A stretch of 64,000 bases of DNA from Ktedonobacteraceae bacterium (GTDB taxonomy: Bacteria > Chloroflexota > Ktedonobacteria > Ktedonobacterales > Ktedonobacteraceae). The position numbers and the translations under genes are program-made. The stretch spans positions 725 through 64,724 of the forward strand of contig DATJHM010000048.1 of NCBI GenBank assembly GCA_035493895.1, given 5' to 3'. Positions 7,131 to 20,473 of the stretch are shown piece by piece (the stretch's first letter is position 1; each line of letters starts with the position of its first letter). Below the pieces are notes generated by a model, which worked only from the letters and a program-made list of their open reading frames with translations, made no database searches and was not told the origin of the DNA.

Positions 7131-7134
7131 CGGC

Positions 7135-7208: not shown

Positions 7209-7217
7209 TCGCATAGT

Positions 7218-7291
7218 GGGGGCGTGGTGCAGCGTCAACACAGTACATCCAATTGGTACATGACGCCGGGTTCAACTCCCGGTCGCCTCCA
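7218..7291 (+). ncRNA. tRNA-like module 2 of cassette 3 (Ala-type acceptor, 9-nt loop ATCCAATTG)
   Basis: Invariant GGGGGCGTGGTGCAGCG ... CGCCTCCA. Anticodon stem GTAC/GTAC and T arm GCCGGG-TTCAACT-CCCGGT. Confidence 0.55.
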
Positions 7292-7344
7292 CAGTTCATC
7301 CATTGCAAAACTCTCCTCATCGCAGCCCAGAAGCACAACAAGCA

Positions 7345-7395
7345 TTGACAATAAATCTAAACTCAACTATATTGCATACATCGGATTCGTCCGAT
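7345..7395 (+). promoter_or_regulatory. Cassette 4 promoter plus 5' leader hairpin
   Basis: TTGACA (7345-7350), a 17-nt spacer, TATATT (7368-7373) and the hairpin ATCGGA-TTCG-TCCGAT (7380-7395). Confidence 0.7.
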
Positions 7396-7399
7396 CAGC

Positions 7400-7472
7400 A
7401 CAGGAGTAGCGTAGATGGTAGCGCGTCTGCTTTGCACGCAGAAGGTCGCAGGTTCGAGTCCTGTCTCTTCGT
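7400..7472 (+). tRNA. tRNA-like module 1 of cassette 4 (Ala-type UGC anticodon arm, non-canonical acceptor)
   Basis: The anticodon arm TCTGC-TTTGCAC-GCAGA is identical to bacterial tRNA-Ala(UGC). D arm GCGT-AGATGGTA-GCGC and T arm GCAGG-TTCGAGT-CCTGT. The acceptor ACAGGAG / CTCTT-C-GT pairs only with a bulged C and continues 4 more bp. Confidence 0.55.
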
Positions 7473-7481
7473 GCTGTCAGT

Positions 7482-7554
7482 GGGGGCGTGGTGCAGCGTG
7501 AGCATCGTGCAGCCAAAAGCACAGGACATCAGGTTCAACTCCTGGTCGCCTCCA
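7482..7554 (+). ncRNA. tRNA-like module 2 of cassette 4 (Ala-type acceptor, 8-nt loop AGCCAAAA)
   Basis: Invariant GGGGGCGTGGTGCAGCG ... CGCCTCCA. Anticodon stem GTGC/GCAC and T arm ATCAGG-TTCAACT-CCTGGT. Confidence 0.55.
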
Positions 7555-7607
7555 CACTTCATCCACCGCAAAACTCCCCTCGTGCCACCTCAGAAGCGCA
7601 ATGAGCA

Positions 7608-7658
7608 TTGACAACGCTTTTCCCCTCAACTATATTACATGCATCGACTTTGTTCGAT
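7608..7658 (+). promoter_or_regulatory. Cassette 5 promoter plus 5' leader hairpin
   Basis: TTGACA (7608-7613), a 17-nt spacer, TATATT (7631-7636) and the hairpin ATCGA-CTTTGT-TCGAT (7643-7658). Confidence 0.7.
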
Positions 7659-7662
7659 CGGC

Positions 7663-7736
7663 GTGGGAGTAGCTCGGGTGCTAGAGCGCCTCCTTGCCAA
7701 GGAGAGAGGTCGCAGGTTCGAGCCCTGCACACTCAA
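7663..7736 (+). tRNA. tRNA-like module 1 of cassette 5 (Gly-type GCC anticodon arm, degenerate acceptor)
   Basis: The anticodon loop TTGCCAA is identical to bacterial tRNA-Gly(GCC). D arm GCTC-GGGTGCTA-GAGC and T arm GCAGG-TTCGAGC-CCTGC. The 5' GTGGGAG pairs with the trailer only through an internal loop. Confidence 0.5.
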
Positions 7737-7745
7737 CGTCGTCGT

Positions 7746-7818
7746 GGGGGCGTGGTGCAGCGAAAGCATAGTACGCTCATTAGTACAGGACATCAGGTTC
7801 AACTCCTGGTCGCCTCCA
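7746..7818 (+). ncRNA. tRNA-like module 2 of cassette 5 (Ala-type acceptor, 8-nt loop GCTCATTA)
   Basis: Invariant GGGGGCGTGGTGCAGCG ... CGCCTCCA. Anticodon stem GTAC/GTAC and T arm ATCAGG-TTCAACT-CCTGGT. Confidence 0.55.
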
Positions 7819-7916
7819 CATTCACCCGAATATCTTATGGCCATTTATCCCCGCATTCTTGCCAGACCGATCTTGCAGAGATTTCAGCCAATAAAAAAAG
7901 AATTGAGTGGACTATC

Positions 7917-8951
7917 ATGACGCCAGAAGCTCTCTCAAGTTTTTTGCATAAGCTCGTCGAACATCGTCTGATGTTCAGTACTATGATCTGGGGCGCGCCG
8001 GGCATCGGCAAATCGAGCATTGTCGCGCAGACTGCGGCTGCCTACGAGATGGAGATGATCGATCTTCGCCTCTCACAACTGGCCCCGACGGATCTGCGCG
8101 GCTTGCCCGTGGCTGACAATGGTGTCTCGCGCTGGTATCCGCCCGAATTTTTGCCGCGTGAAGGCAAGGGCATTCTCTTTCTCGACGAATTGAATCTCGC
8201 TCCTCCCGCGATGCAGGGGATGGCGCAACAGTTGATTCTGGATCGCCGCGTCGGGAACTATACGGTTCCCCGGGATTGGTTTGTCTGGGCCGCAGGCAAT
8301 CGCAAAGAAGATCGTGCCGCCGTGTTCGACATGCCCGCGCCACTCGCCAACCGCTTCATCCATCTCACGGTCGAGGCGCACTTTGACAGCTTCAAATCCT
8401 ACGCCCTCGGACAGCACATTCACGAGCACATCCTGGCGTTTCTCTCTTTCCGTCCCGCATTGCTACATAAGCTCGATCCACAGCAGCCTGCCTGGCCTTC
8501 GCCTCGCTCGTGGATGATTGCCAATCGTCTATACAAAGTGGGCCTGGATATCTCGCATGTGGTCGGCCAGGGCGTTGCCGCAGAGTTTGCCGCTTTTCTC
8601 AAGCTCTATCAACAGTTGCCCAATGTCACTGAGATTTTGCAGGGAAACGGCGACAAGATTGGCTTCCCCGATGAGCCATCGCAGCGTTACGCCCTGACCG
8701 TTGCTCTGACTATGCGCGCCACTTCTCTGCAAGAAAGCTATCTGGCATTTCAATGGATGGCTGCGCATGCCGGACACGAATGGATACAGCTCTTTGCTAC
8801 CGATCTCTTCCGTCAGGCTCGCGCACGCAACGAACTGGGACGTCTGGCGACACTGGTGCAGCGCGATAAACGCTTACAGCAAATGTTCATTGAATACATG
8901 AAGTTGCTGGAGGAGCCCGACGCGTTGGAGGAAGCCGATGAGCAAGAATGA
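7917..8951 (+). CDS. MoxR-like AAA+ ATPase (AAA_5 type)
   Basis: Walker A GAPGIGKS, Walker B ILFLDELN, and AAGNRKEDRAAVFDMPAPLANRF. The likely start is the ATG at 7917 (MTPEALSS...). The ORF-track start at 7608 reads through cassette 5 and is rejected. Confidence 0.85.
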   Translation: MTPEALSSFLHKLVEHRLMFSTMIWGAPGIGKSSIVAQTAAAYEMEMIDLRLSQLAPTDLRGLPVADNGVSRWYPPEFLPREGKGILFLDELNLAPPAMQGMAQQLILDRRVGNYTVPRDWFVWAAGNRKEDRAAVFDMPAPLANRFIHLTVEAHFDSFKSYALGQHIHEHILAFLSFRPALLHKLDPQQPAWPSPRSWMIANRLYKVGLDISHVVGQGVAAEFAAFLKLYQQLPNVTEILQGNGDKIGFPDEPSQRYALTVALTMRATSLQESYLAFQWMAAHAGHEWIQLFATDLFRQARARNELGRLATLVQRDKRLQQMFIEYMKLLEEPDALEEADEQE

Positions 8952-10068
8952 TGCTTTTCAGCGCCAGATTTCCGCCGCGATCATTCAGTTGCGCCTGCAT
9001 TCGCCGTTCTTTGCAACGCTCGCGCTGTTCGCCAGGATTATTCCCACGCAAAACTATCCCACGGCGGCAACCGATGGACGCGATGTCTTTATCAATCCAG
9101 ATTTCTGGCGCGACCTGACGACCGCTGAGCGCCTGGGCTTGCTCGCTCACGAAGTACTGCACGCCGCGCTCCTCCACGTGCCGCGCCTGGGCCGACGCCA
9201 TCCCTTAACCTGGAATATTGCAGCCGATATTGTGGTCAATGGCATCATTCTTGCTCAGGATGGTTTTGCGCTGCCGAAGGGGCATCTGCGCTATGCGCAG
9301 CTTGAACAACTGAGTGTGGAGGAAATTTATCATCAGATCCAGGCAAATGCCGACGTACGCAAGCTTTTGCTTCCTCTGTTTGCCGATCTGCTGTTGCCCA
9401 CAGAAGGACTCTCTCCCGACCAGTATGCCGAACTTGAGCAGCACTGGAGGCAGGCCTTACGCCAGGCCGAAACGCTGGTCGAAGTGCTGGGACATGGCAC
9501 GCTGCCAGCAGGCTTGCGGCGCGAAATGACCCATCTCAGCCCCTCTCAACTGGATTGGCGAGCCTATCTCTGGCGCTTCCTGGTGCAAACTCCGACCGAT
9601 TTTGAGGGCTTCGATCGTCGCTTTGTGGGTCAGGGACTCTATCTGGACGCGCTCGCGGGGGAGAAACTGCGCGTCTTTGTGGCGGTCGATACCAGCGGCT
9701 CTATTGGCAGTAAAGAGATTGCGCAGTTTCTCGGCGAGGTGCAGGCCATCCTGGGTGCCTATCCACATCTGGAGGCCATCCTCTATTATGCAGATGCTGC
9801 CTGCTATGGTCCCTATGAGCTGACCCCTAACTCAGAGCTTCCCCCTCCGGTGGGTGGCGGCGGCACCGATTTTCGTCCGTTCTTTGCGGCCGTTGAGACG
9901 ACCCTCGATGCTTCGTCTCATGGCATCTGCATCTATCTGACCGATGGCTATGGTACCTTTCCCAGCGTACCACCCTCATTGCCCGTGCTCTGGGTCCTCT
10001 CTCCCGGCGGGATAAGCATCGAATATGTGCCATTTGGGGAAGCGGTACGCCTGATTCCCGACGTGTGA
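8938..10068 (+). CDS. vWA-like domain protein with N-terminal HExxH metallopeptidase-like domain (DUF2201-type partner of MoxR ATPases)
   Basis: HEVLH zinc-binding motif and a MIDAS-like VAVDTSGSI. The start overlaps the ATPase stop by 14 nt, which suggests an operon. Confidence 0.8.
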   Translation: MSKNDAFQRQISAAIIQLRLHSPFFATLALFARIIPTQNYPTAATDGRDVFINPDFWRDLTTAERLGLLAHEVLHAALLHVPRLGRRHPLTWNIAADIVVNGIILAQDGFALPKGHLRYAQLEQLSVEEIYHQIQANADVRKLLLPLFADLLLPTEGLSPDQYAELEQHWRQALRQAETLVEVLGHGTLPAGLRREMTHLSPSQLDWRAYLWRFLVQTPTDFEGFDRRFVGQGLYLDALAGEKLRVFVAVDTSGSIGSKEIAQFLGEVQAILGAYPHLEAILYYADAACYGPYELTPNSELPPPVGGGGTDFRPFFAAVETTLDASSHGICIYLTDGYGTFPSVPPSLPVLWVLSPGGISIEYVPFGEAVRLIPDV

Positions 10069-10101
10069 CCTGCGCGCCTCGCTTTCCCGATCTGTTTTGT
10101 A

Positions 10102-10431
10102 TTAGCGGTTCCGTTCGCTACGTACGAAGACTGTCGTCTCGATAGAGAGAAAGAGCACGAACAGAATCCCGATGACCAGCAGATTGATGAACGGATTGAG
10201 CAGGACAACCTGAGCGTATTCTGATCTGCCCATATAGAAGATACTACGGACCAGATCGACGGTGTAGCGCATCGGGACAAGCTTCGAGAGGATGTCCAGA
10301 TACCAGGGGAGATTGCGGACCGGCAGAAAGACGTCTGCCAGAAAGAATCGCGGGATGACAGTGAAGTACCCCACGGCTGAAGTTATCAAAATCCATCTAT
10401 TGAAAATCTTGATGTGCTCTTGCTCCTGCAA
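10102..10431 (-). pseudogene. ABC-2 type transporter permease, C-terminal fragment only
   Basis: The 109-aa ORF matches only the last TM segments of ABC-2 permeases (LPVRNLPWYLDILSKLVPMRYTVDLVRSIF). The upstream frame is broken by a stop, and the expected N-terminal part is occupied by repeat family X. Confidence 0.5.
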
Positions 10432-10576
10432 GTGTAGCCGGAGAAAGGATGAGAACCGGCATCATCCCCGCAGATGAGTTACCAGGAACCACATCGGATA
10501 GTAAAAAACGAAAAGATAGACAATGACGTTTGACTAAACAATCCAAATCCCTCTATGGATTGAAAGCATGTACGTC

Positions 10577-10969
10577 CACAAATTCATGCCGAAGAACCAA
10601 TTTCGCCCGAACCCTTCAGAAATTTCATTACCTGTCGAATATCTATAACAGAAGAGGAAAAATCCCTCCCACCCCGTTCTCACAACAACGATGTCGCCTG
10701 AAGAGAGACAGTGCAGCATCCAATAATGGGGGAAAGTGTAGGACTGGCGTAGGGGGCGTGTAGGCGTGAGATTCCCATCACATCGGCATTTGTGTAGGTT
10801 ATGTAGCTTTTTAGAAAAAAATCTCGTAGCGTAAAAAAATCTCGTAGCGCGTCACCAAAAGGATCCCAATTCCCTATCATCTCACCTCTCACCATCTCCT
10901 GTAGCTCTGGTGTCGAGGCGTGTAGGGTCAAGATCGCGATCACATCCACCCTGGTGTAGGATGTGTAGC
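10577..10969 (+). repeat. Repeat family X, copy A (roughly 400-bp non-coding element with multiple TGTAG motifs)
   Basis: Shares about 80-85% identity by eye with 28240-28542 (same orientation) and 53627-54067 (inverted). It contains a 17-nt tandem repeat, AAAAAAATCTCGTAGCG x2, at 10815-10849. Confidence 0.75.
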
Positions 10970-11052
10970 CCTGTAACAACTTGTCATAACGAATCCACCC
11001 ATTGGCCCGGAGAACCCATACCGGCATCGACACGCGTCGCGCCCCCGCAGAG

Positions 11053-11098
11053 GTAGGGATCGGGCTTTATGCCGATCCGCGAGCCCCCCGGCCATCGC
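11053..11098. repeat. REP-like element, family b (GTAGGGATCGGGCTTTATGCCGATCC) plus a CCCCCGGCCATC box
   Basis: A GTAG head is followed by an imperfect palindrome. The same architecture recurs at 16600-17120. Confidence 0.65.
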
Positions 11099-11205
11099 GC
11101 GCGACAAATCTGTTGAAAACGAAACAAAAATCTATATTTCACTATATTTTCTAAAACTAACTGCTAATACGTTTGATACAGAAATAGGTACATAGTATTA
11201 GTTTC

Positions 11206-11234
11206 TGTACAAAAATGAATAATATCCCTATAAT
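11206..11234 (+). promoter_or_regulatory. Possible promoter of the 1714-aa gene, inside an AT-rich leader
   Basis: TGTACA (11206-11211), a 17-nt spacer and TATAAT (11229-11234). GGAGG at 11271-11275 lies 9 nt before the ATG. Confidence 0.35.
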
Positions 11235-11284
11235 AAGTGGATATTGCCCCTGTCTATCAGTAACCCATCAGGAGGACGTCCTTT

Positions 11285-14200
11285 ATGTTATCGTGCTGGA
11301 ACTGCCACGCGGTATTACCAGAGGGAGCAAAATTTTGTGGACGCTGTGGAAATAAACAAGACACGGCAGCGTCTGTTCTACCATCTTCTCTTCTTACCGT
11401 TCCCCACTCTACTCAACTTGTAGCAACGGACCTTGTGCATCATGATCAACCTGTCGCAACGGACCTGCATCATGATCACTCTGCCGCTCCCACTTTTACC
11501 ATCTACTCGGCCGTTTTGCCGATCAAAACCTGGCTTGCAGAACATCGCGCGACCATTGCCGCAAAACTTTTGACGGTCCTTGTGTATGTCAATACCAGGC
11601 GCAATGAAAACAGAGAGCTTTTTGAAACCAATAGCGGAAGAGAAACTCCTCCGCTCGAAGATCGTTCCTGGGACAAAGTTGCCTTTATTGCCGGGCTGTA
11701 TGCTCGCTTTATGTGGCGCTATGAGTTGAACGCCGAACAGAAACGCAATCTCTGGGATGCCTTGTGCTGGTCCGTGCTCTATGAACGAGCTTTGCGCCCG
11801 AAGATGGCTGATGCCCGCTTTGCCGAACTGGTTGGCTTTTTTAATGGCTGCGCCGGGGATAGCGAATTCTTCGCCTATATGCTCCTGAGCATGCCGCTCT
11901 TACTTGAATATGTTGATACTTCCAATATCCACAAACTCCTGACCGCCAGTGAACGTCTGGGCAACTCATCGGATGTCGTGCATCTGCGCGCATTACTTCA
12001 CCAACGCCTCGTTATGCCTGCCGATGTGGATCTGGAGTCAACTCAATTGACGGTGCTGGCCGATCAGCCCGGCCCGAGACGTGAGTGGGCGCGTATCATT
12101 CTGGCTATTGAACATCTCTGGCAGTTTTTAGACAAAAAACGCGAGAGCAGTAATCAGCGCGCGCTGACCTTTGCCCGCGAAAATCCCATGGACTCGACCA
12201 CTCCTTCGCAACTGGCAACGCTGGGCGGGGTGATTTGTCGCAATGTCGTCTTTCGCTATGCTCACAATAGTACGTTACCTGGCAGCATGCTGACTGCTGA
12301 ACAATTGGCGGACGCCATCGCGCTGGCGGAATACTCGATACGCTATAGTTCAGGTGATTATATTGGTAAGGCCGAATATTATTATCTGCTCTTGAGCAGC
12401 TTACGCGATCTGCGGACACATGTACTCTCGGCCGATGTGCTCGTGAGCGCGCTGAAACGCCAGTTCGCACCCGAGGGATTGGCCCGAATATCGGAATTCT
12501 CCTGGTCCGATCTCCTCGGCATCGTGACGCGCTACCTGAGCGAGTGTCGTCTGGCGGAAACCATTGATGTGGTGGAGGTGGAGTCCTGGATACGCGCTCT
12601 GGCTGATCTTGCTCCTCAGTTTCAACTGGAGGCGCGCAAGGTGTTTGTGAGTGAGGTGCGCCAGCATGGCGTGCGCGACAGTATGGCTTTGCGTGCTTTG
12701 CAGGGCGAGTCATTGGAAATGGTCAGTGAAACACATGACAGGGGGCCACTGGCGTTTCTCGGACAGGAGCGCTACAAAGAGCTGCTGACCTGTATTCGTA
12801 CCTCTCGTCTGGATCGTCTGGGCGAAATTCTGCGTGAGGCGCGCCCGAAACTTTTCGCCGAACTGAGCCGTCTATTGACCGATCAGAAGTTTGCGGAGAT
12901 TCTCCCGCCCCGACGCTCATTGCGCATACGTGGTCGCAATGCCAATGCTCTCGATCGCTTTCAGGAGGCAAAAACGCTTATTCAGAGCGAGAATGTCGCC
13001 GAGCAACAGGAGGGACTTGCTCTCTTCGAGCGAGCTCAGGCTGATACTGCCCGCGAATATCAGCCCGTTGCACGCGAATGGCGTCTGTTCGCGATTGCCT
13101 GCGTCCGGGCGCGCTATCAGGCGGTCCCGCTGTGGGAAGAGGATCGCTGCAAGGGCGTTGCGTCCTGGGAGGAGATCTGGAATCTGGCCGTCTTCTATGT
13201 TCATGTTGGCAAGATCGATCAGGCGTTGGAATTGCTGGTGCCCGGCGTTGAGCGGCAGCGAGCCCCTTTCTCGCATCTGCGTTTTGCCCTCTATTGCAGC
13301 GTGCAGATTCTCGGACAGGGGTCACATTCGCAACACGAGAGCATCGAAGCCGCCGAAACGTTTCTTATGGAGCATCTGAAACAGTATCCCTTGCCGGAAT
13401 GCTATCTGGCATGGTCTTTATTGGTCAGTGAACGCGAGAGTGTTGATCGAGCGCAAAGTACAAACAATATGATGAAGCAACTGACGATCCTGACCAAATT
13501 TAACGAGTTGCTTGACCATCCCATCCTTATCCTGAAGCCAGAGGAGTCGGTCAGCGATTCTGCCCTGGAGACATTTGAAAAAGAACTCCGTCGCCTCGAT
13601 CTGGACGATGTCTGGCGTTTCTGGATTCACGACTATGCCCAACGCAACCGCTATAAATTCAGTGCCTGGCAGGCGCTGAGCGATGCGTACGAGCGCGCGG
13701 GCGAAAGTACCGGAGCTGAAAAGTCCCTGAAACATGTTGCAGATACGCAGCTTGATATGTATCTGAAGCAGCGCGAGAAAAGTAGTGCTGTTGTCTCTAA
13801 TCTGCTGCATCTGCGCAATCATCTATGTAAGTTGTTCGATTTTTATCAACGTCAGGGCCGTTTATTGGACGATGATGTCTTTGCCCGCTTTAAGCACTAT
13901 CGCACGACTGTCCCCGAACTATGGCATGAACGGGAGAGTGCGAATACGAAGTTGATCAAGCAGACACGTCCTCTGCTGGAGAAACTGGGGCGAACAGGCA
14001 GCACAAACGAGTCTTCTGCAACTCAAGCCCCACAGAAAGCCTGGTATGCGCTCGCTTCGGAGCTTACGACTGTCCAGGAAATCGCCACTCTGAAGAGCTT
14101 GCAGGCGCGCATACATACCCATGTCCATCTTCTGACGGATGCGCAAAAGCAGGGTCAGGACGATGTTGCGGGCGTCCTATCGCTGCTGGATGATCTCTGC

Positions 14201-16429
14201 TCACTCGAGGGTACCCGCTGGCGTCACGATGAGCTGTCGCGCGAGGTGGAGCGTTTGAATAGCGCCATCCAGGAGGTTGGTGCTCAAATAGAACAGGAAG
14301 CCGCTCTCAAGCCACTGAAAGCGTTGCTCGAAACATTTCGTCGCGTCTTCAAACGTTTTAGCGAAATGCAGCATCTGGCACCGGAGCTGGAGATCGAGCC
14401 AACTCCGCTTGGAGGTGGCCTGCCTGATGATATGCCCGAGACTGCGCTGGTGATCCGCATTCATAATCCCGGCCCTGGCAAAGTCAGCGATCTGCGCATC
14501 TCCTGTACTGAGAAGGGATTGACCGCCTCGCAGGGCGAAGTAACGCTGAACTGTCTGGAGCAGGGAGAGAATGCTGTCGTCGCTATCCCTGTGCTTGTGC
14601 AGGTGCCCGCAGAGGCAATCCAGCTCGATTTTCAGATTACGTTGACCTACCAATGGGGGATTATCAAGGATATGAGCTGTATCTGTCCGCTCAAGGTTCG
14701 GCTCTTCAATTTCCACGATTTCTTACGCCAGCATGATATTCACGATTATGAGCTGCCCAATCCGTACATTTTCAATCGTCCCATCGACTTTTCTGAGGAT
14801 GATCACCGTCTCTTCCAGGGACGTGAGAGCGAGCTTGCGCTGATCCGCACGATCTTTTTCAAGCGGCAGATGACCGGCGCTCCCCTCTATTTCCACGGGA
14901 TTCGCAGGGTGGGAAAGACGTCGCTACTCAATCGCATTGTGCTGGAATTGCGGAAAGAGGCGTTCTTTCCCTGCGTTGTCGATCTCAAAAGCGTGAAAGC
15001 CGCGCAGCACCCGTTAGAGGTCACGATCAACAGTTTTACACAGAGCATCCTGCGCGATGCGCAAAGTCAGGGCCTGGATGTAGAGGGTCTGGAGTCTGTG
15101 GGAGCGAGCCATCCAGATCCGCTTCTCGGCGTTGAGCGTTTCTTCGCGGCGCTGCGCGAACGGACCGGTCGACTCCAGCTTGTGCTGCTCCTGGACGAGT
15201 TCTATCTCCTCGTTGCCGAGCGCACGACGCCTTTGCTGGACCTGTTGCGCCATATTCATCAGAGTGGGATGATTCTCTTTATTATGTCCGGTTGGATGCG
15301 CCCGGAACCGCTACGCCGCGCCTGCCCGGAGACGCAACTCTTCCCGCTCACAGAAAGGCCGCTCGATTTTCTCTCAGTTCACGCTGTTCGTCAGGTACTG
15401 CTTGCGCCGGTTGCGGGCTATGGCATTGAAATTCCTGATCATACCGTGCAGCGTGTCTTCTGGCAGACTGCTGGCAATCCTTACCACGTTGCGCGCATGG
15501 CCTATGAAGGGGTGGATCGGCTCAATGCCCAGCATCGCACCGTGCTGGCTCCACAGGATATCGATGCGATCGCCGAGCGTCTGGCCAGCGAGCCCGCCAA
15601 CTTCACCTCATCGTTGTTCAGCCCCTTAATTCTCAGTCCGGAGGAACAGCGTGAGGCGATCCGCTTTGCCAGAGGTTTAAACGGGAAGCGTGACTATCTC
15701 GACTTTGCGGAAGCCTCGCGCACATTTGATCTGGACATTATTCGTGGGTTGGAAGAGAAATATATTCTTGAGTACCTGCGTGATGAGAAGGGAGAGCGTC
15801 TACGTGTGCGCAGCAAGATGCTGGCGACGTTCCTGGGGAGTCGTATGACCGAGCCCATCGTCCTGCCGCCGCCGCCATCCCATGAGAAACGCGTGGGATT
15901 ATTCGTCGATTACGAAAATCTCCGCCCCCTCATGCCCGCCAGCATGACGGCCAGGGAGGTCGGCGAGATGCTCGTCACCTATGCTGCTCGTTTTGGCGAA
16001 GTCGTCTGTTGTTGGGCCTGTGCTGATCCGCGCAACATTCGCGATCTCGCCAGCGTCAAACTCGAACTGGAGCAGGTCGGTTTCCAGCTTCAGACGCCGA
16101 GCGGTGAGCCTCAGACCGGGCAATCCAGCAAGAACCTGTCGGACTTCGTGCTCATCGAACGTATCATCGACGAAAGCACGCACACCGATCCCAGCATCTA
16201 TATCATCGTCAGTGGAGACAAAGATTACTACGAACGCATCAACACGCTTCTGAACGGAGGTTGTACCGTGCGTCTCTGCGCCTCCATCAGCGCTGGCAAT
16301 CTGGCCGAGAAGTATCATACCCTGGAGACAGAACGTCATCAGTATCAACTCGCCGAAGGCAAACCAGAGCGCGATTTCTTTATCGACGATCTGGATGCCG
16401 TCTTGAAACTCAAAGTGAACAACCCGTAG
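11285..16429 (+). CDS. 1714-aa multidomain protein: N-terminal zinc ribbon, long helical region, STAND/ORC-like P-loop ATPase, C-terminal NYN (LabA-like) ribonuclease domain
   Basis: CWNCHAVLPEGAKFCGRCG (zinc ribbon). FQGRESEL...YFHGIRRVGKTSLLNRI (Walker A, about 14896-14925) and LVLLLDEF (Walker B). The NYN motifs are VGLFVDYENL (about 15893) and IIVSGDKDYYERI (about 16204). Strong RBS and ATG start. Confidence 0.85.
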   Translation: MLSCWNCHAVLPEGAKFCGRCGNKQDTAASVLPSSLLTVPHSTQLVATDLVHHDQPVATDLHHDHSAAPTFTIYSAVLPIKTWLAEHRATIAAKLLTVLVYVNTRRNENRELFETNSGRETPPLEDRSWDKVAFIAGLYARFMWRYELNAEQKRNLWDALCWSVLYERALRPKMADARFAELVGFFNGCAGDSEFFAYMLLSMPLLLEYVDTSNIHKLLTASERLGNSSDVVHLRALLHQRLVMPADVDLESTQLTVLADQPGPRREWARIILAIEHLWQFLDKKRESSNQRALTFARENPMDSTTPSQLATLGGVICRNVVFRYAHNSTLPGSMLTAEQLADAIALAEYSIRYSSGDYIGKAEYYYLLLSSLRDLRTHVLSADVLVSALKRQFAPEGLARISEFSWSDLLGIVTRYLSECRLAETIDVVEVESWIRALADLAPQFQLEARKVFVSEVRQHGVRDSMALRALQGESLEMVSETHDRGPLAFLGQERYKELLTCIRTSRLDRLGEILREARPKLFAELSRLLTDQKFAEILPPRRSLRIRGRNANALDRFQEAKTLIQSENVAEQQEGLALFERAQADTAREYQPVAREWRLFAIACVRARYQAVPLWEEDRCKGVASWEEIWNLAVFYVHVGKIDQALELLVPGVERQRAPFSHLRFALYCSVQILGQGSHSQHESIEAAETFLMEHLKQYPLPECYLAWSLLVSERESVDRAQSTNNMMKQLTILTKFNELLDHPILILKPEESVSDSALETFEKELRRLDLDDVWRFWIHDYAQRNRYKFSAWQALSDAYERAGESTGAEKSLKHVADTQLDMYLKQREKSSAVVSNLLHLRNHLCKLFDFYQRQGRLLDDDVFARFKHYRTTVPELWHERESANTKLIKQTRPLLEKLGRTGSTNESSATQAPQKAWYALASELTTVQEIATLKSLQARIHTHVHLLTDAQKQGQDDVAGVLSLLDDLCSLEGTRWRHDELSREVERLNSAIQEVGAQIEQEAALKPLKALLETFRRVFKRFSEMQHLAPELEIEPTPLGGGLPDDMPETALVIRIHNPGPGKVSDLRISCTEKGLTASQGEVTLNCLEQGENAVVAIPVLVQVPAEAIQLDFQITLTYQWGIIKDMSCICPLKVRLFNFHDFLRQHDIHDYELPNPYIFNRPIDFSEDDHRLFQGRESELALIRTIFFKRQMTGAPLYFHGIRRVGKTSLLNRIVLELRKEAFFPCVVDLKSVKAAQHPLEVTINSFTQSILRDAQSQGLDVEGLESVGASHPDPLLGVERFFAALRERTGRLQLVLLLDEFYLLVAERTTPLLDLLRHIHQSGMILFIMSGWMRPEPLRRACPETQLFPLTERPLDFLSVHAVRQVLLAPVAGYGIEIPDHTVQRVFWQTAGNPYHVARMAYEGVDRLNAQHRTVLAPQDIDAIAERLASEPANFTSSLFSPLILSPEEQREAIRFARGLNGKRDYLDFAEASRTFDLDIIRGLEEKYILEYLRDEKGERLRVRSKMLATFLGSRMTEPIVLPPPPSHEKRVGLFVDYENLRPLMPASMTAREVGEMLVTYAARFGEVVCCWACADPRNIRDLASVKLELEQVGFQLQTPSGEPQTGQSSKNLSDFVLIERIIDESTHTDPSIYIIVSGDKDYYERINTLLNGGCTVRLCASISAGNLAEKYHTLETERHQYQLAEGKPERDFFIDDLDAVLKLKVNNP

Positions 16430-16500
16430 AGTCGCCGCTCGCCTGCCCTGTCACGGAAAGAAGGTGACGCTCCCATCATTTCTGACCACCATCGTGCCCA

Positions 16501-17165
16501 GTAGGGACGCCATGTCGAATGGCGTCCGCCCCCACCGGCCATCTCGCCCTTCTGCACACATCGGGATCGCGCTTCCTGCCTCTCCAATACGTATCAACCT
16601 GAGGGGCAAGATGGCCGGTGGGGGGGCGCGGACCGGCATAAAGCCCGGTCCCCTACCTCAGCCCTTCTTCGAGGAGTGGGAGCATCGGTGCCCCCTTGCC
16701 AAAGACGATACGACCCGCAAAACAGAACAGGTAGGGACCGGGCTTTATGCCGGTCCAATACGCATCAACCTAAGAATAGATGAGCCATTGGAGATGGCCG
16801 GTGGGGCACGCGGGCAGGAACAAACCCATTGTGGGCCCCGGCCACGACGTTGGTGACAGTAGAGGCACAGTTCCGCTGCGGCTCCACCGTGCCTCTACTG
16901 ATCCATTGACGAGGTGAGGGAGTGCCTGCGAACTCGCTCGATTTCCCTGGCTCCGCCGCAGGAACGCGCTAGGATCGGTGCCCTTCGCATCCAACCACGA
17001 GCGCGAAAAAGCTGGTCGCTCTCCCTTTGGCCCTCTCGCATACCTCATCCTTTCTTAGGTTGATGCGTATTGACCGGGCTTTATGCCGGTCCGCGGCCCC
17101 CACCGGCCATCTCCAATAACTCACCCTTTCTCTGGTTGATGCGTATTGGGCATAGACCCGCCGCG
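16501..17165. repeat. Mosaic of REP/BIME-like elements (families a, b, d plus GCCCCCACCGGCCATCTC boxes and CAATACGCATCAACC boxes) in both orientations
   Basis: Elements include GTAGGGACGCCATGTCGAATGGCGTCC (16501), GGACCGGCATAAAGCCCGGTCCCCTAC (about 16627), GTAGGGACCGGGCTTTATGCCGGTCC (about 16733), GTAGAGGCAC...GTGCCTCTAC (about 16861-16903), and the GGTTGATGCGTATTG / CAATACGCATCAACC boxes. Confidence 0.75.
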
Positions 17166-17230
17166 CTTCTACAAAATACTGCGCATGGTCATTTGCTGAC
17201 CTGCGTTGCGAACCCTACAACATAGCATAG

Positions 17231-17256
17231 AGGGTACCCATGCCACCGGGTACCTT
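17231..17256 (-). terminator. Hairpin just downstream of the permease stop
   Basis: AGGGTACC ... GGGTACCTT forms a stem of about 8 bp, 10 nt after the stop at 17266. Confidence 0.35.
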
Positions 17257-17265
17257 GCAAATCGT

Positions 17266-18690
17266 CTACCGCACCTCAACCTCACTTAACTCTGCCTTCG
17301 CCGTTACCGTTTTGTGTGCAAACACAAAACGCGCAAGCAGCCAGTACAGGACACCGCCGACAATGAAGCCGGTAAAAACGCTCATATCAGAGTTGTGAAA
17401 GAGCTTTGCGAGCGGCCCCACAATCAAAGTAGAGTTTAACCAGAGCGCAGAAGCAATCATACCCACAATCTGCGCAATGATCCCGGCTGGATTGATGCCG
17501 CCTTGATACCAGTAAGGGCCTCCCAAGCGCGCAAATAATCCTGGAACATCATAGATATTGTGGCGCATCCAGGCGTCCATCAGATAGATCGCACACCAGG
17601 GAGCCAGGAAAATAATGAGCAACGAAAGGAATTCGCCATACAGCGTATTAAAGCTCGAAGAGAAAATCGCAATCGCCGCCAGGACCGTACAAATCACCAT
17701 ATCGACAGTCGTGGCCTGCCAGCGTTTAAGTGGTAGCCCCAGCGCCTGCAAGGTCAAACCGGAAGAGTACAGATCAATGGCATTCACCGCCAGCATGTTC
17801 ACGCAGAGCAGCAGTAAATAGGGGACAAGAAACCAGCCAGCCAGCGCTGATGGTAGCCCGGAGATAGGATCAGAGGCCCCCGGCAGGCGTGTTGCAACGG
17901 CCGCTCCCAGGATTTCGAGCAGTACAGCAGGGATCATTCCTCCAAGAGAAGAAGCCCAGATGACTGGTCCGGAGCGCACCGTTTTCGGCAGATAGCGCGA
18001 GTAATCGCTGCCCGTATTCGCCCAGGAGATACCGCCTCCCGAGACCATCAGGGCAAATCCTACCGTCATCGCCGCAAAAGAACCGCTTTGTCCTCCCGAG
18101 AGCTGCACTTTGCCTGCAACCATCACGGCTACAATGATGAAGAACAGCAGGAAAATCCAGGCCAGCACCTTTTGAAATGCCATGATTGCCGCATGCCCTA
18201 CGGTCGGGAGATAGATCTGTACCGCCGCAACAACGAGGATCACCACAATCTTGAACCACGCTGCATCGCTAAACGTTATGCCAACCGCATGCGTCAGCGT
18301 GAGAATGGCAATCACGGCCAGCGCTAAACCAGAACCTTCAAAACCAATCAGTGTGCACCAGTTAAAAAAGGAGAGCAGGCGTCCACCATTAGGACCGAAT
18401 GAGGCGCGGTTAATGGCAAAGGTCGCAGTCCCCGTGCGTGGTCCCTGAATGCTGGTCAACCCCAGCAAAAAGAAAGCCAGGTTTCCTACAAGAATAACTC
18501 CCAGGCTCTGATAGAAAGATAATCCCAGGGAAATAAGCAACGCACCATTGATAATATAAAATACATTCGCATTGGTTCCTAGCCAGAGGAAAAAGAGGTC
18601 GCGTGGGCGTCCCCGCCGCTCATTTTCTGGTACGACTTCGATGCCGCGCTGTTCAATCGTACCGCTCTGCGCTTCTTGTTCTGTCGCCAT
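17266..18690 (-). CDS. purine-cytosine permease (NCS1 family transporter)
   Basis: 474 aa with about 12 TM helices. The N-terminus GIEVVPENERRGRPRDLFFLWLGTNANV is typical of CodB-like NCS1 permeases. Confidence 0.85.
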   Translation of the reverse strand: MATEQEAQSGTIEQRGIEVVPENERRGRPRDLFFLWLGTNANVFYIINGALLISLGLSFYQSLGVILVGNLAFFLLGLTSIQGPRTGTATFAINRASFGPNGGRLLSFFNWCTLIGFEGSGLALAVIAILTLTHAVGITFSDAAWFKIVVILVVAAVQIYLPTVGHAAIMAFQKVLAWIFLLFFIIVAVMVAGKVQLSGGQSGSFAAMTVGFALMVSGGGISWANTGSDYSRYLPKTVRSGPVIWASSLGGMIPAVLLEILGAAVATRLPGASDPISGLPSALAGWFLVPYLLLLCVNMLAVNAIDLYSSGLTLQALGLPLKRWQATTVDMVICTVLAAIAIFSSSFNTLYGEFLSLLIIFLAPWCAIYLMDAWMRHNIYDVPGLFARLGGPYWYQGGINPAGIIAQIVGMIASALWLNSTLIVGPLAKLFHNSDMSVFTGFIVGGVLYWLLARFVFAHKTVTAKAELSEVEVR

Positions 18691-19469
18691 TAGCTCTGTA
18701 ACTCCTGTAATTGTCGTAGTTCTTGTAAAACGGGGATGCGCTCCAGCATACCAGGCTCAAGGCGTTCCCAGACGACATGCCCCGGTTGATGTCCATATTC
18801 TGCGGGGACGGTAATCGTTTGTGTTGGGGTCACAATGAGATCAACGCGCGTATCGAACACGGAACCGGGCAGGGCGACTTCAACTACCTGCACATCATGT
18901 CCCGCGCAGACAACGGTCGGGTTCTCGGTCAGGCAGTGCGTCTCAGAAAACATGGCCCATTCCAGGTCGAAGTAGCCATGCCCTTTGCCAAAGCGGACAC
19001 CTGACGTGCTGATGGCCGATGCACCTGTTACCAGCAGATCGAACTTGCCAAGCGCCGCAACTTCTGCCAGTCCGAGGGGCAGCGCAAAACGATCCATGCC
19101 GTCCAATGTCGCCGCCCAACCATAATTTTGCGCTGGAATACGCGCCGGATCGATATAGAGAAACCCACGTGCGATGCCATATGTGGACATCACAAATCGC
19201 TTCCCATCCTCCATCGCTTTTCGGCGCAGCACTTCCAGATTGTTGTCCGGTGTGATAAACATCAATGTGCTATTCTGCCATGCGGGAAGTTCCTGAATAC
19301 GTCGTGCTCCATCCTCAGAACCTTCATAGTCAGTAATAAACTCTGCAAAGTTCCAATGAAAACGCGAATCCGGTCGCGCCACCTTGCGCAAGGCTTGCCA
19401 GACGTGCTCGCGTATCGCCTCCTTTGTGAGGAGATCCGCAGGATGCTGGGAGTTTCTGTCTGATGTCAT
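18690..19469 (-). CDS. 5-formyltetrahydrofolate cyclo-ligase family protein
   Basis: 259 aa. The GVRFGKGHGYFDLEW motif resembles the GxGGGYYD signature of the family. Its stop overlaps the permease start, which suggests an operon. Confidence 0.6.
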   Translation of the reverse strand: MTSDRNSQHPADLLTKEAIREHVWQALRKVARPDSRFHWNFAEFITDYEGSEDGARRIQELPAWQNSTLMFITPDNNLEVLRRKAMEDGKRFVMSTYGIARGFLYIDPARIPAQNYGWAATLDGMDRFALPLGLAEVAALGKFDLLVTGASAISTSGVRFGKGHGYFDLEWAMFSETHCLTENPTVVCAGHDVQVVEVALPGSVFDTRVDLIVTPTQTITVPAEYGHQPGHVVWERLEPGMLERIPVLQELRQLQELQS

Positions 19470-19858
19470 AGTTATTTTATGCTCCTTGATAGAGAGAAAA
19501 TAGAGGACAATTGCTCCTTCTTCAGCGTTTGTTTGTTCTTCATTTGAGCCGCCGAGATCAAAAATATCTCATGTGGGGATAGCCAAATGTTTCATCTTGC
19601 GTGGTGTACTTCAGCGGCGAAGGAGGTCGTCAGTGTGATAAGACAAGATGGTATCCTGATTTTACTCATTTGATCTTGTTGTAGAGTATAATCAATGTCT
19701 CTTTGTTCATTCTATGGATGATATGCCCAAAAAATAGGCACCGTAATTCAACAATTCACACAAACATGCCACACGACTCCTCAGCAGGAACTCATCCGCC
19801 GCTCAGACGTCTTCTTCTATGGGCTGATGCATATACCAGCCCAGGAAAGAAGAAAACG

Positions 19859-20296
19859 ATGAAAATACTACACTGGGGATGGATACTCTTGTTGGGATTC
19901 TTGCTTGTCGCATGTGGAAAAACGCCTCAGCAACCGACCGCACTGCATGTGTTGCGTCCTGCCAGTCAATTCCCCGTCTTTGGTCAACCGTTCCCTCGTC
20001 TGGAACGCACCACTCATGATACAACAACTATCCAACAACTGTATGCCGCTGCACAGGCCCTTCCGGTCGTCGATCTGGGAAAGGTCTACCATTGCCCTGC
20101 TGACTTTGGCGTGGTCTACCAGCTGGACTTTCAGGCTGGGAGCGACCTGCTCCAACACATGGATGTACAGGCCAGTGGCTGTCAGTGGGTCCATCTGAGC
20201 TCCACTGATGTTCGTCAGAGCAATGCTGCATTCAGCCGTCTCCTGGCAAGCACGATTGGTATCCCTTCGTTGCTGCCAGTAGTGAAGCATACCTGA
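19859..20296 (+). CDS. hypothetical lipoprotein
   Basis: MKILHWGWILLLGFLLVAC is a signal peptide with a lipobox (LVAC). An AGGAAAGAAG RBS lies upstream. The ORF-track start at 19703 is less likely. Confidence 0.6.
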   Translation: MKILHWGWILLLGFLLVACGKTPQQPTALHVLRPASQFPVFGQPFPRLERTTHDTTTIQQLYAAAQALPVVDLGKVYHCPADFGVVYQLDFQAGSDLLQHMDVQASGCQWVHLSSTDVRQSNAAFSRLLASTIGIPSLLPVVKHT

Positions 20297-20420
20297 TCAC
20301 AGGGAGGTGTTTTTTTGTCTCTATCCGGATCGTCCACGCTTTTCCCTGCACTGACAAAACCGTTTTCGCGATATGCAGGGAGAATATACCTGAAGCGCGT
20401 TCGCGTTTTGTGCTATTCAT

Positions 20421-20459
20421 GCCCATGGCTCTCACACATTGTGCATGAGAGCCATGGGC
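20421..20459 (-). terminator. Hairpin terminator downstream of the MscS gene
   Basis: GCCCATGGCTCTCA (20421-20434) pairs with TGAGAGCCATGGGC (20446-20459), a 14-bp perfect stem 15 nt after the stop. Confidence 0.6.
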
Positions 20460-20473
20460 GTGAATGAAGCAAA

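Follow-up and report, generated by a model that had tools for sequence, protein, structure and literature searches.

The window, i.e. the whole stretch of 64,000 nucleotides that was analysed, carries on its forward strand, at 11285..16429 with the stop codon included, a complete open reading frame (ORF) that starts with ATG and encodes a protein of 1714 aa (Table 1). The source of this gene is a soil Chloroflexota bacterium and its product has the same sequence (100% identity) as P0001, which bears the name 'NYN domain-containing protein [Ktedonobacteraceae bacterium]'. The initial annotation had described a single large gene with an AT-rich leader and a ribosome-binding site, and all of these were found, the GC content of the leader being 0.41 (11150-11449) compared to 0.50-0.58 within the gene. 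The ATG at 11285 is supported by the conserved N-termini of the homologues (MLSCWNC / MLLCQYC / MSSCWNC). The promoter in Table 1 is no more than a candidate, as the number of such sites in this region is not above shuffle expectation. The GC and GC3 of the gene match those of its neighbours and therefore do not point to a recent acquisition from elsewhere.

Dispersed repeats lie on both sides of the gene, as had been claimed earlier: family X and a REP-like element upstream and a REP mosaic downstream. By blastn, 10600-10982 of family X matches 53977-53614 with 79% identity over 386 nt and 10578-10806 matches 28241-28473 with 70% identity, and the segment 16445-16553 of the mosaic matches 28220-28110 at 82%. 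The exact REP core CGGGCTTTATGCCG occurs in 4 copies in the window, compared to 0.65 expected, and all 4 flank the 1714-aa gene. The neighbouring ORF of 109 aa aligns with positions 162-211 of the 211-position ABC2_membrane model at E 3.4e-5, its 23.9 bits falling short of the cut-off (26.9), and no continuing ORF was found upstream of it; as only the last 50 model positions are matched it fits a truncated permease, which is also how it had been annotated. No recognised defence system is adjacent to the 1714-aa gene within the window.

Table 1. Features of the 1714-aa gene and its flanks, in window coordinates
Feature	Coordinates	Strand	Basis or remark
ABC-2 permease C-terminal fragment, 109 aa	10102..10431	-	Pfam ABC2_membrane; 5' part missing at repeat boundary
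Dispersed repeat of ~380 bp ('family X')	10578..10982		blastn; upstream of the 1714-aa gene
REP-like hairpin element, core GGGATCGGGCTTTATGCCGATCC	11028..11098		Upstream of the gene; hairpin 11047-11096
Sigma-70-like promoter candidate TGTACA-17-TATAAT	11206..11234	+	10/12 matches; top score of scanned region; within AT-rich leader
Ribosome-binding site AGGAGG	11270..11275	+	9 nt 5' of ATG; direct sequence reading
Putative N-terminal zinc ribbon CxxC-x10-CxxC, aa 4-22	11294..11350	+	Pfam (just below cut-off) and Cys conservation in homologues
Linker, probably disordered, aa 27-78	11363..11518	+	pLDDT <50 in AF2 model
All-alpha solenoid, ~45 helices, aa 80-1030	11522..14374	+	AF2 model, mean pLDDT 71.6
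Beta-sandwich, aa ~1052-1139	14438..14701	+	AF2: six or seven strands, pLDDT 60-86
Nucleotide-binding domain (NBD), aa 1177-1376	14813..15412	+	FQGRESEL, Walker A GIRRVGKTS, Walker B LLLDEF; pLDDT 85-93
Helical lid domain, aa 1385-1441	15437..15607	+	G-x-P motif TAGNPYH, G1397/P1399
Winged-helix domain, aa 1452-1519	15638..15841	+	AF2: three helices, beta-hairpin, helix (model residues 413-480)
LabA-type NYN (PIN-like) domain with C-terminal DFFIDDL strand, aa 1533-1714	15881..16426	+	Pfam, AF2
Downstream dispersed-repeat mosaic	16445..17149		Three copies of the upstream REP core: 16634-, 16739+, 17075+

Domain organization of the 1714-aa protein

The domain order from the N- to the C-terminus is a putative zinc ribbon, a solenoid of ~950 aa, a beta-sandwich, a nucleotide-binding oligomerisation module (NOD), and a LabA-type NYN domain. 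Every motif that the initial annotation had quoted was located in the translation: CWNC...CGRCG (aa 4-22), FQGRESEL (1177-1184), GIRRVGKTS (1205-1213), and LLLDEF (1301-1306), and in the NYN region FVDYEN (1540-1545), SDFVLIE (1619-1625), and SGDKDY (1643-1648). Two AF2 structure models were used and both are of moderate confidence (pLDDT about 71). The proposed N-terminal zinc ribbon agrees with the four-Cys motif, and Zn_Ribbon_1 (PF13240) matches aa 4-24 with 24.5 bits, just under the Pfam cut-off of 25. This motif was present in 38 of the 57 N-terminally complete family sequences, and in the alignment of full-length relatives it is missing from L008 and L009. Among the long and short forms, which are described below, it was present in 10/25 and 23/23, respectively; it is thus common but not universal. 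The linker that follows is poorly conserved and varies in length and sequence across the alignments.

The solenoid is the family-specific region of the protein. It had been described as about 1100 aa of helical, TPR-like sequence, of which the helical nature was upheld and the length was not. No Pfam family matched it, and the Foldseek matches were generic TPR/HEAT scaffolds only (Ctr9, Ski3, IFT-A, mTOR) with a TM of about 0.1. With a median pI of about 6.3-6.6 the solenoid is near-neutral to acidic, which would suit the binding of a protein or a ligand more than that of RNA, and we regard it as a putative sensor or scaffold. The beta-sandwich of ~90 aa between the solenoid and the ATPase was overlooked in the initial annotation. 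It is acidic (pI 4.8), has no Pfam match, and contains an NPGPG motif (N1061-P-G-P-G1065) that is invariant in five aligned full-length relatives.

The NOD is STAND-type, being made up of an NBD, a helical domain, and a winged helix, and it is nearest to ATPase_2 and 2fna. In the family alignment G1205, G1210, K1211, and [TS]1212 of Walker A were each found in 30/30 members, and D1304 and E1305 of Walker B in 30/30 and 28/30, respectively. The window protein has LFQGRESEL at 1176-1184, ahead of the P-loop, and F1177, G1179, and R1180 of this F-x-G-R motif were each conserved in 29/30 and E1183 was kept in 20/30 family NODs, with D in 4 more. A motif of the hhGRExE type N-terminal to the P-loop is reportedly a STAND feature. 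G1397 and P1399 of the lid were invariant in all 30 family NODs; AAA+ initiators have a sensor-2 arginine at the lid position where the STAND G-x-P stands. The G-x-P is a conserved STAND motif of the helical domain, and STAND proteins are defined by an NBD-HD and a WHD, the G-x-P, a repeat sensor, an effector at either end, and an ADP/ATP switch with multimerisation (PMC6468293).

The earlier call of an ORC/STAND-type P-loop NTPase is borne out by these motifs and by matches to Cdc6, 2fna, and NLRP7. Foldseek gave Cdc6 (1fnn, 2.7e-10), PAB2304 (2qen, target-normalised TMt 0.52), RuvB, and NLRP7, and with Cdc6/Orc1 and NLRs the aligned stretch of about 370-390 columns took in the winged helix. 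Since Cdc6/Orc1 also carry a winged helix, this domain alone cannot separate STAND from Cdc6/Orc1. When the family profile was compared with the PDB, 2fna was matched at E 2.7e-8 from Walker A through the G-x-P, which aligned to GGiP of 2fna, and Cdc6 at E 0.014 in the P-loop region only. In Pfam, ATPase_2 (PF01637), AAA_16, AAA_22, and nSTAND1 are all sub-threshold for the window protein, ATPase_2 scoring 22.0 bits with the whole protein and 25.1 bits with the isolated NOD compared to a cut-off of 33.2; the relative P0040 passes with 41.5 bits over model positions 2-219 of 225. The ATPase_2 structure 2fna is the closest relative by sequence and 2qen the closest by target-normalised structural score. 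These proteins are stand-alone chains of ~350 aa and here the module is embedded, between solenoid/beta-sandwich and nuclease, in a chain of 1714 aa. Membership of the ORC/Cdc6 initiators was considered and rejected: the fold is similar to 1fnn, but the lid has G-x-P and the ORC-CDC6 profile matches are only marginal.

The C-terminus had been read as an NYN domain with its acidic positions intact, and both Pfam and the alignment agree with this. Pfam NYN (PF01936) matches aa 1536-1667 at model positions 1-125 of 145 with 34.3 bits, compared to a gathering cut-off of 24.2, and D1542, E1544, N1545, D1620, and D1645 are invariant in 53/53 family NYN domains. The window protein also has a fourth Asp, D1647, which occurs in 35/53 of these domains. 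The family profile aligns over its full length, at a marginal E of 0.018, with the LabA-like protein 2qip (VPA0982), with which D-x-x-N, D, and G-D-x-D are aligned, and LabA-like NYN proteins include eukaryotic MARF1. In the AF2 model the domain shows alternating beta-alpha secondary structure, as for a Rossmann-like fold (pLDDT 60-88). Foldseek returned no domain-level match to an NYN fold because the whole-model search was dominated by the ATPase. The strict conservation of the acidic residues argues for the predicted metal-dependent catalysis, and by analogy with the NYN family the predicted substrate would be RNA. No biochemical role is established for bacterial proteins of this NYN type, no nuclease assay of a PF01936 protein had been made by the time of the review, and bacterial PF01936 genes are linked by gene neighbourhood to tRNA/rRNA processing (PMC5499597). 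Typical LabA-like NYN proteins are stand-alone proteins of ~160 aa or OST-HTH/LOTUS fusions (PMC5499597), unlike the window protein, a giant solenoid/STAND protein that has its NYN as the C-terminal module and with it the extra DFFIDDL strand, which is conserved. HEC-09, a MARF1-like NYN protein, is a proposed defence candidate that gave no protection against the phages tested.

Distribution of the family and its long and short forms

The protein family is very rare, patchy, and undescribed. With a profile of the solenoid (aa 1-1040) 99 proteins were found at E <= 0.001, of which about 75 are true family members, among 1.84 billion representatives; the family representatives were counted at 50% identity and are mostly metagenomic. 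In a pattern-limited scan the family was found in 4 of about 185,000 species genomes, and it was not found in the phage/viral and plasmid collections that were searched. No PADLOC family matched at E <= 1, Avs models included, and no NCBIfam defence model matched, there being just a P-loop match of 12 bits to DS8_antiphage, which has a cut-off of 790. The effector is the same throughout, as all members whose C-terminus is complete end in NYN.

The ancestral form appears to be the long one with the STAND module, from which the NOD block seems to have dropped out on at least two or three occasions, giving rise to short solenoid-NYN forms. These short forms keep all the catalytic residues and are in stable synteny with a gene for an alpha/beta-hydrolase or for a thiolase at 48-74% protein identity, and this synteny with metabolic genes holds down to 48-61% identity. 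Because the NOD appears to have been lost and the solenoid-NYN part was conserved, the predicted nuclease may be able to work and be controlled without the ATP switch. The loci of the long forms have no common neighbours even at 72-86% protein identity. Thus, this rare family with its non-syntenic long-form loci is not a conserved housekeeping family that is syntenic across the phylum. At 2 family loci the gene is immediately preceded by an integrase fragment or a transposase, and at the loci inspected there are no neighbouring RNA-processing genes. In locus L005 there are nSTAND genes near the family gene.

A putative ATP-switched RNase and its alternatives

The reading that we favour, and to which we give an even chance, is that the gene encodes a single-chain sensor-switch-effector protein of this rare undescribed family, working as a STAND/NLR-like RNase that is switched by ATP and activated by oligomerisation. 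At rest, an ADP-bound closed NOD together with the solenoid would keep the NYN domain monomeric and inactive. The binding of a macromolecule by the solenoid would open the NOD, ADP would be exchanged for ATP, the NODs would oligomerise, and the clustered NYN domains would then cleave tRNA, rRNA, or mRNA, the outcome of which may be an arrest of growth, an abortive infection, or RNA decay in response to stress. The behaviour of the NOD as a switch and its oligomerisation are taken over from established STAND biology. With the STAND NTPases MalT, PH0952, APAF1, and the NLRs the protein shares Walker A/B, an F-x-G-R-E-x-E-like motif, the lid G-x-P, the winged helix, and a long repeat region and an effector on the same chain; it is unlike the usual STAND proteins in that its repeats are N-terminal to the NOD and separated from it by a beta-sandwich, in that no arm domain could be recognised, and in that the NYN follows directly after the winged helix. 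We counted in favour of this switch the intact ORF with its ribosome-binding site and promoter candidate, the conserved NYN and NOD motifs, the Pfam NYN score and the profile match to 2qip, the fold matches of the NOD to Cdc6/Orc1, PAB2304, and NLRP7, its profile match to 2fna and the ATPase_2 score of P0040, the rarity of the family, the unshared neighbours of the long forms, the integrase or transposase at 2 loci, the nSTAND genes in L005, the near-neutral solenoid, and, in the window, the repeats that flank the gene and the truncated neighbour. Counted against it were the lack of PADLOC and NCBIfam matches, of an adjacent defence system, and of phage or plasmid copies, the native-like GC and GC3, the unswapped effector, the apparent repeated loss of the NOD with conserved, syntenic short forms left behind, the inverted domain order, and the moderate confidence of both structure models. 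For the long form, conflict or defence is plausible as the likeliest single role.

A possible but rather unlikely alternative is that the family is a cellular RNA-metabolism or regulatory factor in which the solenoid and the zinc ribbon recruit a specific RNA, an RNP, or a partner protein for cleavage by the NYN, and in which the NOD of the long form would be an accessory regulatory or remodelling module, for example in the development, dormancy, or stress of filamentous bacteria. It would be comparable to LabA-type regulators or to PRORP, a eukaryotic, organellar enzyme with a PPR solenoid, a zinc module, and an NYN-like nuclease. The likeness to PRORP, i.e. an alpha-solenoid, a zinc element, and a PIN/NYN-type metallonuclease whose specificity comes from the non-catalytic part, is strongest for the short forms, which retain the zinc ribbon along with the catalytic residues, and the constancy of NYN and solenoid with a dispensable NOD, the short-form synteny, the gene composition that equals that of the neighbours, and the absence of a defence-island context, a PADLOC match, or a phage or plasmid copy are all in keeping with such a role. 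PRORP and ZC3H12A do owe their specificity to the RNA-binding domains and zinc motifs attached to them, and the tRNA/rRNA neighbourhood links of PF01936 also fit (PMC5499597). However, the family NYN is LabA-type (PF01936), its zinc ribbon is at the extreme N-terminus, and its solenoid is not basic, unlike typical RNA-binding solenoids; PPR and PRORP-type (PF16953) profiles gave no Pfam match at E <= 1 and Pumilio had no Pfam match either. Moreover, core housekeeping is hard to square with so rare and patchy a family, the long-form loci are non-syntenic even among close relatives, no RNA-processing genes were seen among the neighbours, and it is the STAND-containing form that appears ancestral.

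It is improbable that the protein is a bona fide member of Avs/AVAST that senses a conserved phage protein via its TPR-like region. Like Avs it has a STAND ATPase, TPR-like helices, and a predicted enzymatic death or arrest effector, here a nuclease domain, on one polypeptide, the window locus is variable and repeat-rich, and Avs is very diverse, with >90 families reported (bioRxiv 10.64898/2026.08.25.746987). Avs proteins have been described as having an N-terminal effector, a central STAND, and a C-terminal TPR sensor, and in this family that order is inverted, the effector is always NYN, the NOD appears to be repeatedly lost, the defence-island context is missing, no Avs structure was among the best 50 Foldseek hits, and the NOD is nearest to ATPase_2 (2fna/2qen) and Cdc6 and not to the solved Avs structures. 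With no PADLOC match in addition, membership of Avs was rejected. Thus, of the Avs-type architecture proposed earlier the functional analogy stands and the membership does not, and activation by oligomerisation as in Avs is a natural mechanistic analogy. Less credible still is a role on DNA, such as restriction or the maintenance of plasmids or the chromosome, with an ORC/Cdc6-like DNA-bound AAA+ module and an NYN that acts on DNA or serves as a non-catalytic binding module. In its favour, the top Foldseek matches are Cdc6/Orc1 proteins with a winged helix (1fnn, and 2qby and 2v1u, which are DNA complexes). In ORC/Cdc6 initiators the winged helix is origin-binding. Some PIN-like nucleases, the FEN group, do act on DNA, and the review names no nuclease-tested PF01936 member (PMC5499597). 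What speaks against it is the STAND G-x-P in the lid of 30/30 members, a Pfam ORC-CDC6-like match of only E 0.017 in one distant member, sequence-level relatives that are ATPase_2 proteins and not initiators, and the strictly conserved acidic residues of the NYN, which argue for catalysis.

If the ATP-switched RNase is the right reading, the NYN/LabA RNase would join the effector repertoire of the bacterial NLR-like (STAND) proteins, an NYN effector on a bacterial STAND protein not having been described in the literature searched, and STAND receptors could also have the reverse layout, in which the sensor precedes the switch. The natural pairs of long and short forms, which share solenoid and nuclease and differ in the ATP switch, would then be a ready comparison of the control that a STAND module exerts over a toxic effector. 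More tentatively, the protein may found an undescribed 'sensor-first' family of STAND immune or stress receptors that has an NYN RNase effector and has shed its ATP switch several times, each time leaving a sensor-nuclease of zinc ribbon, solenoid, and NYN that suffices by itself, and as the closest relatives of the NOD also have repeats N-terminal to it, a wider inverted STAND clade is hinted at. This would provide the first mechanistic role for bacterial PF01936 nucleases, namely that of an RNA-cleaving arrest module switched by ATP and activated by oligomerisation. As a regulatory RNase, on the other hand, the protein would be the bacterial counterpart of PRORP and other solenoid-guided nucleases. 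The family illustrates the extent of the conflict or signalling machinery that is still uncharacterised in large-genome filamentous soil bacteria such as the Ktedonobacteria.

Gene and domain architecture

The ORF described in the initial annotation was read back exactly from the window, and it was found to be a single uninterrupted gene that starts with ATG and whose product is 100% identical to the database entry 'NYN domain-containing protein [Ktedonobacteraceae bacterium]', by which the source is a Chloroflexota (Ktedonobacteria) MAG. An AGGAGG lies 9 nt before the ATG, the leader of 185 nt is AT-rich (GC 0.41 over 11150-11449 compared to 0.50-0.58 within the gene), and all of the peptide motifs that had been quoted are present in the translation, which confirms what had been observed from the sequence. 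The best sigma-70-like match in the scanned region, TGTACA-17-TATAAT (10/12), comes from a set whose total count was not above the shuffle expectation.

Features of the window around the studied gene and of the closest homologous locus, L005
Feature	Coordinates	Remarks
LRV/HEAT protein		before the studied gene
tRNA-like array	2235-7834	~260-nt unit, 5 copies, paired tRNA-like sequences (T-arm GGTTCGAnnCCTG; 5' ends GTGGGGGCGTGGTGCAGCG)
Ser/Thr kinase-WD40 propeller fusion	4874-6952	strong PADLOC matches to kinase models (PD-T4-6, mad6, PglW), lowest E 4e-67
MoxR-like AAA ATPase (AAA_5/AAA_3)	7608-8951	overlaps the DUF2201 gene
DUF2201 putative metallopeptidase + VWA-like protein	8938-10068	overlaps the MoxR-like gene
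ABC-2 permease, C-terminal fragment		last gene before the studied gene
Dispersed repeat, ~380 bp	10600-10982	79% identity over 386 nt to an inverted copy, 53977-53614
Sigma-70-like match	11206-11234
AGGAGG	11270-11275
Studied gene	11285-16429 (+)	1714 aa
Cytosine/purine permease		after the studied gene
5-FTHF-cyclo-ligase-like		after the studied gene
MscS channel		after the studied gene
Composite repeat	27884-28991	two copies (D5, D7, D15), 776 nt apart, 88-90% identical
Perfect 36-nt tandem pair	28453-28542
L005 homologue	10001-15137	GCA_963777355.1, contig CAVZQK010000022.1
L005 STAND genes	15690-23028	just 3' of the homologue; 456 aa and 1850 aa

The intact gene encodes a protein of five-part architecture. 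The domain order that had been proposed, a zinc ribbon, a helical region, an NTPase and a NYN domain, was correct as far as it went but had missed a beta-sandwich of 6-7 strands (aa ~1052-1139) which lies between the helical region and the NTPase. When the whole protein was searched against Pfam, Zn_Ribbon_1 at aa 4-24 scored 24.5 bits, just under its gathering score of 25, and aa 25-1176 gave no match beyond noise-level TPR hits. In an AlphaFold2 model of aa 1-1040 (pLDDT 71.6), a short ribbon is joined by a disordered linker (aa 27-78) to some 45 helices. For this model Foldseek found only generic TPR/HEAT scaffolds (Ctr9, IFT-A, Ski3, mTOR; TM about 0.1) and no specific fold relative for the putative sensor region, and therefore 'TPR-like solenoid' denotes here a fold class and not homology. 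The solenoid is near-neutral, with a median pI of 6.3-6.6 across the family, a value more in keeping with a sensor that binds a protein or ligand than with RNA binding of the PPR kind. In the model of aa 1040-1714, which was built from a 7-sequence alignment and has a mean pLDDT of 71 with 85-93 in the ATPase core, the beta-sandwich is followed by an alpha/beta NTPase, a helical lid, a winged helix (aa 1452-1519) and an alternating beta/alpha C-terminal domain.

The assignment of the NTPase to the ORC/STAND type held up. Matches to ATPase_2 and AAA_22 at about aa 1177-1335 were sub-threshold in Pfam, and aa 1040-1714, searched as a single sequence, had no significant match among the PDB sequences. 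With Foldseek against the PDB, the modelled NTPase-lid-winged helix module aligned with Cdc6/Orc1 (1fnn, 2.7e-10), RuvB, PAB2304 and NLRP7/NLRP14, the highest target-normalised TM, 0.52, being that of PAB2304 (2qen), and these fold matches of a predicted structure place the module at the border between AAA+ initiators and STAND proteins. The fold is like that of ORC/Cdc6 initiators, yet the lid carries a G-x-P motif at the position where AAA+ initiators have the sensor-2 arginine, and therefore the protein is not an initiator of this kind. A profile of 12 diverse family NTPase modules matched 2fna (357 aa), an archaeal ATPase_2-family protein, with an E of 2.7e-8 from Walker A through the lid motif, and the family member P0040 exceeds the ATPase_2 cut-off across the full model (41.5 compared to 33.2 bits); AAA_16 and nSTAND1 matched the family less well than ATPase_2 did. 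Among 30 family modules the GK[TS] of Walker A, the Asp of Walker B and the lid G-x-P (TAGNPYH) are invariant, the Glu next to the Walker B Asp is found in 28 and an F-x-G-R on the N-terminal side of the P-loop in 29; the nucleotide-binding and hydrolysis site is conserved. Since G-x-P and the NBD-HD-WHD arrangement, the 'NOD', are the hallmarks of STAND proteins (PMC6468293), and in view of the ATPase_2 matches, we regard the module as a NOD of STAND type that lies close to ATPase_2.

At the C-terminus, aa 1536-1667 match NYN (PF01936) at 34.3 bits, above the gathering score of 24.2, by which the protein is assigned to this family at the domain level. An 8-sequence NYN profile of the family matched the LabA-like structure 2qip over its full length, though marginally (E 0.018), and the D-x-x-N and G-D-x-D motifs align. 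The claim that the acidic positions are intact was borne out: all 53 family NYN domains, from long and short forms alike, have D1542, E1544, N1545, D1620 and D1645, and 35 of them keep D1647. The acidic site is conserved.

Long and short forms of a rare family

The family is extremely rare and patchily distributed. Word-indexed searches of 5.8 billion clusters gave only 4 close relatives, and an exhaustive HMMER search of 1.84 billion representatives with a profile of aa 1-1040 gave 99 matches, of which about 75 are true members and the remainder match by the zinc ribbon only. The clusters are all metagenomic, singletons or near-singletons. A pattern-limited scan of ~185,000 genomes, one for each species, yielded 4 loci, three of them in Chloroflexota MAGs and the fourth in a bin with the label Gammaproteobacteria, and a metagenome scan 37 more; no member was found on viral contigs in a pattern-limited scan or on plasmids by tblastn. 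One 1837-aa long-form homologue (loci L009, L010 and L016; GC 0.38-0.39), with a different N-terminus of about 235 aa and an adjacent DUF772 transposase, which in L009 is upstream, occurs in the Gammaproteobacteria-labelled bin and in activated-sludge contigs, a distribution that could be due to horizontal transfer or mis-binning.

Mapping of purpose-built domain HMMs on all family sequences distinguished two architectures. The long forms (1400-1855 aa) have the solenoid, beta-sandwich, NOD and NYN, and in the short forms (~500-1260 aa) the solenoid is cut at about aa 770 or 900, in window numbering, and continues into NYN; two representatives keep the beta-sandwich without the NOD. In all sequences whose C-terminus is complete NYN is the last domain, and none carries another effector. 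Where the N-terminus is complete, the zinc ribbon is present in 23/23 short forms and 10/25 long forms, the other long forms beginning directly at the solenoid or bearing extensions of 120-235 aa that have no Pfam match.

In a neighbour-joining tree of 65 sequences, built on the shared solenoid core and NYN, midpoint-rooted and without support values, long forms occupy all of the deep branches and short forms fall into at least 2-3 nested clades. Some short forms are 40-41% identical to the window protein and distant long forms 20-37%. From this topology and these identities it follows that the long form is probably ancestral and that loss of the NOD block probably occurred several times. The alternative of a solenoid-NYN protein into which the ATPase was optionally inserted was dropped, since the short forms nest inside the long-form diversity, which makes loss likelier. 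The closest ATPase relatives outside the family (P0005, P0010 and P0012; 26-30% identical over the NOD) likewise have a C-terminally placed NOD with WD40 or HEAT repeats on its N-terminal side, an order suggestive of a broader 'sensor-first' clade of STAND-like proteins.

Genomic surroundings

The repeats and the truncated ABC-2 permease that had been noticed beside the gene were found again: the dispersed repeat lies upstream, REP-like hairpins flank the gene on each side, and all 4 copies of the exact REP core CGGGCTTTATGCCG in the 64 kb flank it. The repeats and the permease fragment mark a rearranged intergenic region. The gene itself (GC 0.545, GC3 0.60) matches its neighbours in composition. 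The composite repeat resembles both flanks (28110-28220 is similar to 16445-16553, and 28241-28473 to 10578-10806). Insertion of the gene into such an element was considered and rejected, as near 28.1-28.5 kb a reverse-complemented downstream piece precedes the upstream piece, an order and orientation unfit for simple insertion.

No recognised defence gene is among the listed neighbours. The PD-T4-6 matches of the kinase-WD40 gene were given no weight as evidence for defence because they probably reflect generic Ser/Thr-kinase-domain similarity, and the overlapping MoxR-like/DUF2201 pair had no PADLOC match. The tRNA-like units, which interleave with the LRV/HEAT, kinase-WD40 and MoxR-like genes, were called by ARAGORN as 6 tRNAs, among them an unusual Asp(ATC), and by Rfam as 6 matches, several barely above threshold (30.9-42 bits); they resemble tRNA genes that have diverged or degenerated and form a dispersed array, and no evidence was found that links this array, ~3.5 kb upstream, to the NYN gene.

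The genomic context of the long forms is variable. No neighbour is common to the window and the other long-form loci, even L005, whose protein is the closest full-length relative (72-86% identical), and when the 628 ORFs that flank 39 loci were clustered all-vs-all, no family-wide neighbour emerged. The cytosine/purine permease, also found downstream at locus L001, was rejected as a conserved partner because the two permeases are 29% identical, lie on opposite strands and are absent from other loci. Across 48-74% protein identity, one short-form sub-clade retains an alpha/beta-hydrolase as neighbour and another a thiolase. In L005 the homologue is split by an apparent frameshift into ORFs of 1021 and 708 aa that overlap by ~55 nt, so that the gene is a frameshift pseudogene unless the assembly is in error; the shorter STAND protein that follows is of the nSTAND1/nSTAND2 type, and the longer one combines ATPase_2/AAA_16/nSTAND1 with beta-propeller repeats and has a NOD that the family ATPase HMM also matches.

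Proposed role

The initial interpretation, which likened the architecture to that of Avs-type antiviral proteins, is partly supported. A STAND-type NOD, by motifs and fold, does accompany a predicted nuclease effector, but the protein is not a member of Avs/AVAST: its domain order is inverted, PADLOC gave no match even at E <= 1, no curated defence model matches it, and no Avs structure was among the top fold matches. NCBIfam gave nothing beyond one 12-bit P-loop match. In animals, NYN effectors occur in fusion with TRADD-N proteins (PMC8195603), and HEC-09, a stand-alone NYN candidate, gave no protection against the phages tested. The literature searched, a partial set, contained no account of a STAND-NYN fusion in bacteria or of the solenoid family, an absence that is no proof of novelty.

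By analogy with STAND biology (PMC6468293) and the work on Avs, binding of a trigger would cause the NOD, acting as an ADP/ATP switch, to oligomerise, which would activate the attached NYN, expected from its superfamily to be a metal-dependent endoribonuclease (PMC5499597). We give about an even chance to this reading of the protein as an ATP-switched, oligomerisation-activated RNase that acts like a STAND/NLR sensor, and for the long form we consider a role in conflict or defence the likeliest. The main rival is a non-immune nuclease for regulation or RNA processing, which we consider rather unlikely. In its favour are a NYN that is invariant across the family, the probable repeated loss of the NOD from proteins that retain solenoid and NYN in stable synteny, and the lack of a link to defence systems; mobile elements were seen beside the gene only in L009, which has the transposase, and in L014, where an integrase fragment immediately precedes the homologue. 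The combination of solenoid, zinc and NYN, which recalls the logic of PRORP, also speaks for it; the protein is not a PRORP, since no PPR or PRORP match was found.

The diversity of bacterial STAND proteins is vast and already known, and a STAND sensor with a nuclease effector is a known sort of system. What is unusual here is an order that puts the putative sensor first, an effector that is always a NYN of LabA type, the interposed beta-sandwich and the probable recurrent loss of the switch. With its natural pairs of long and short forms and an uncharacterised bacterial NYN nuclease, this family, whose function is predicted only, makes a good experimental target.
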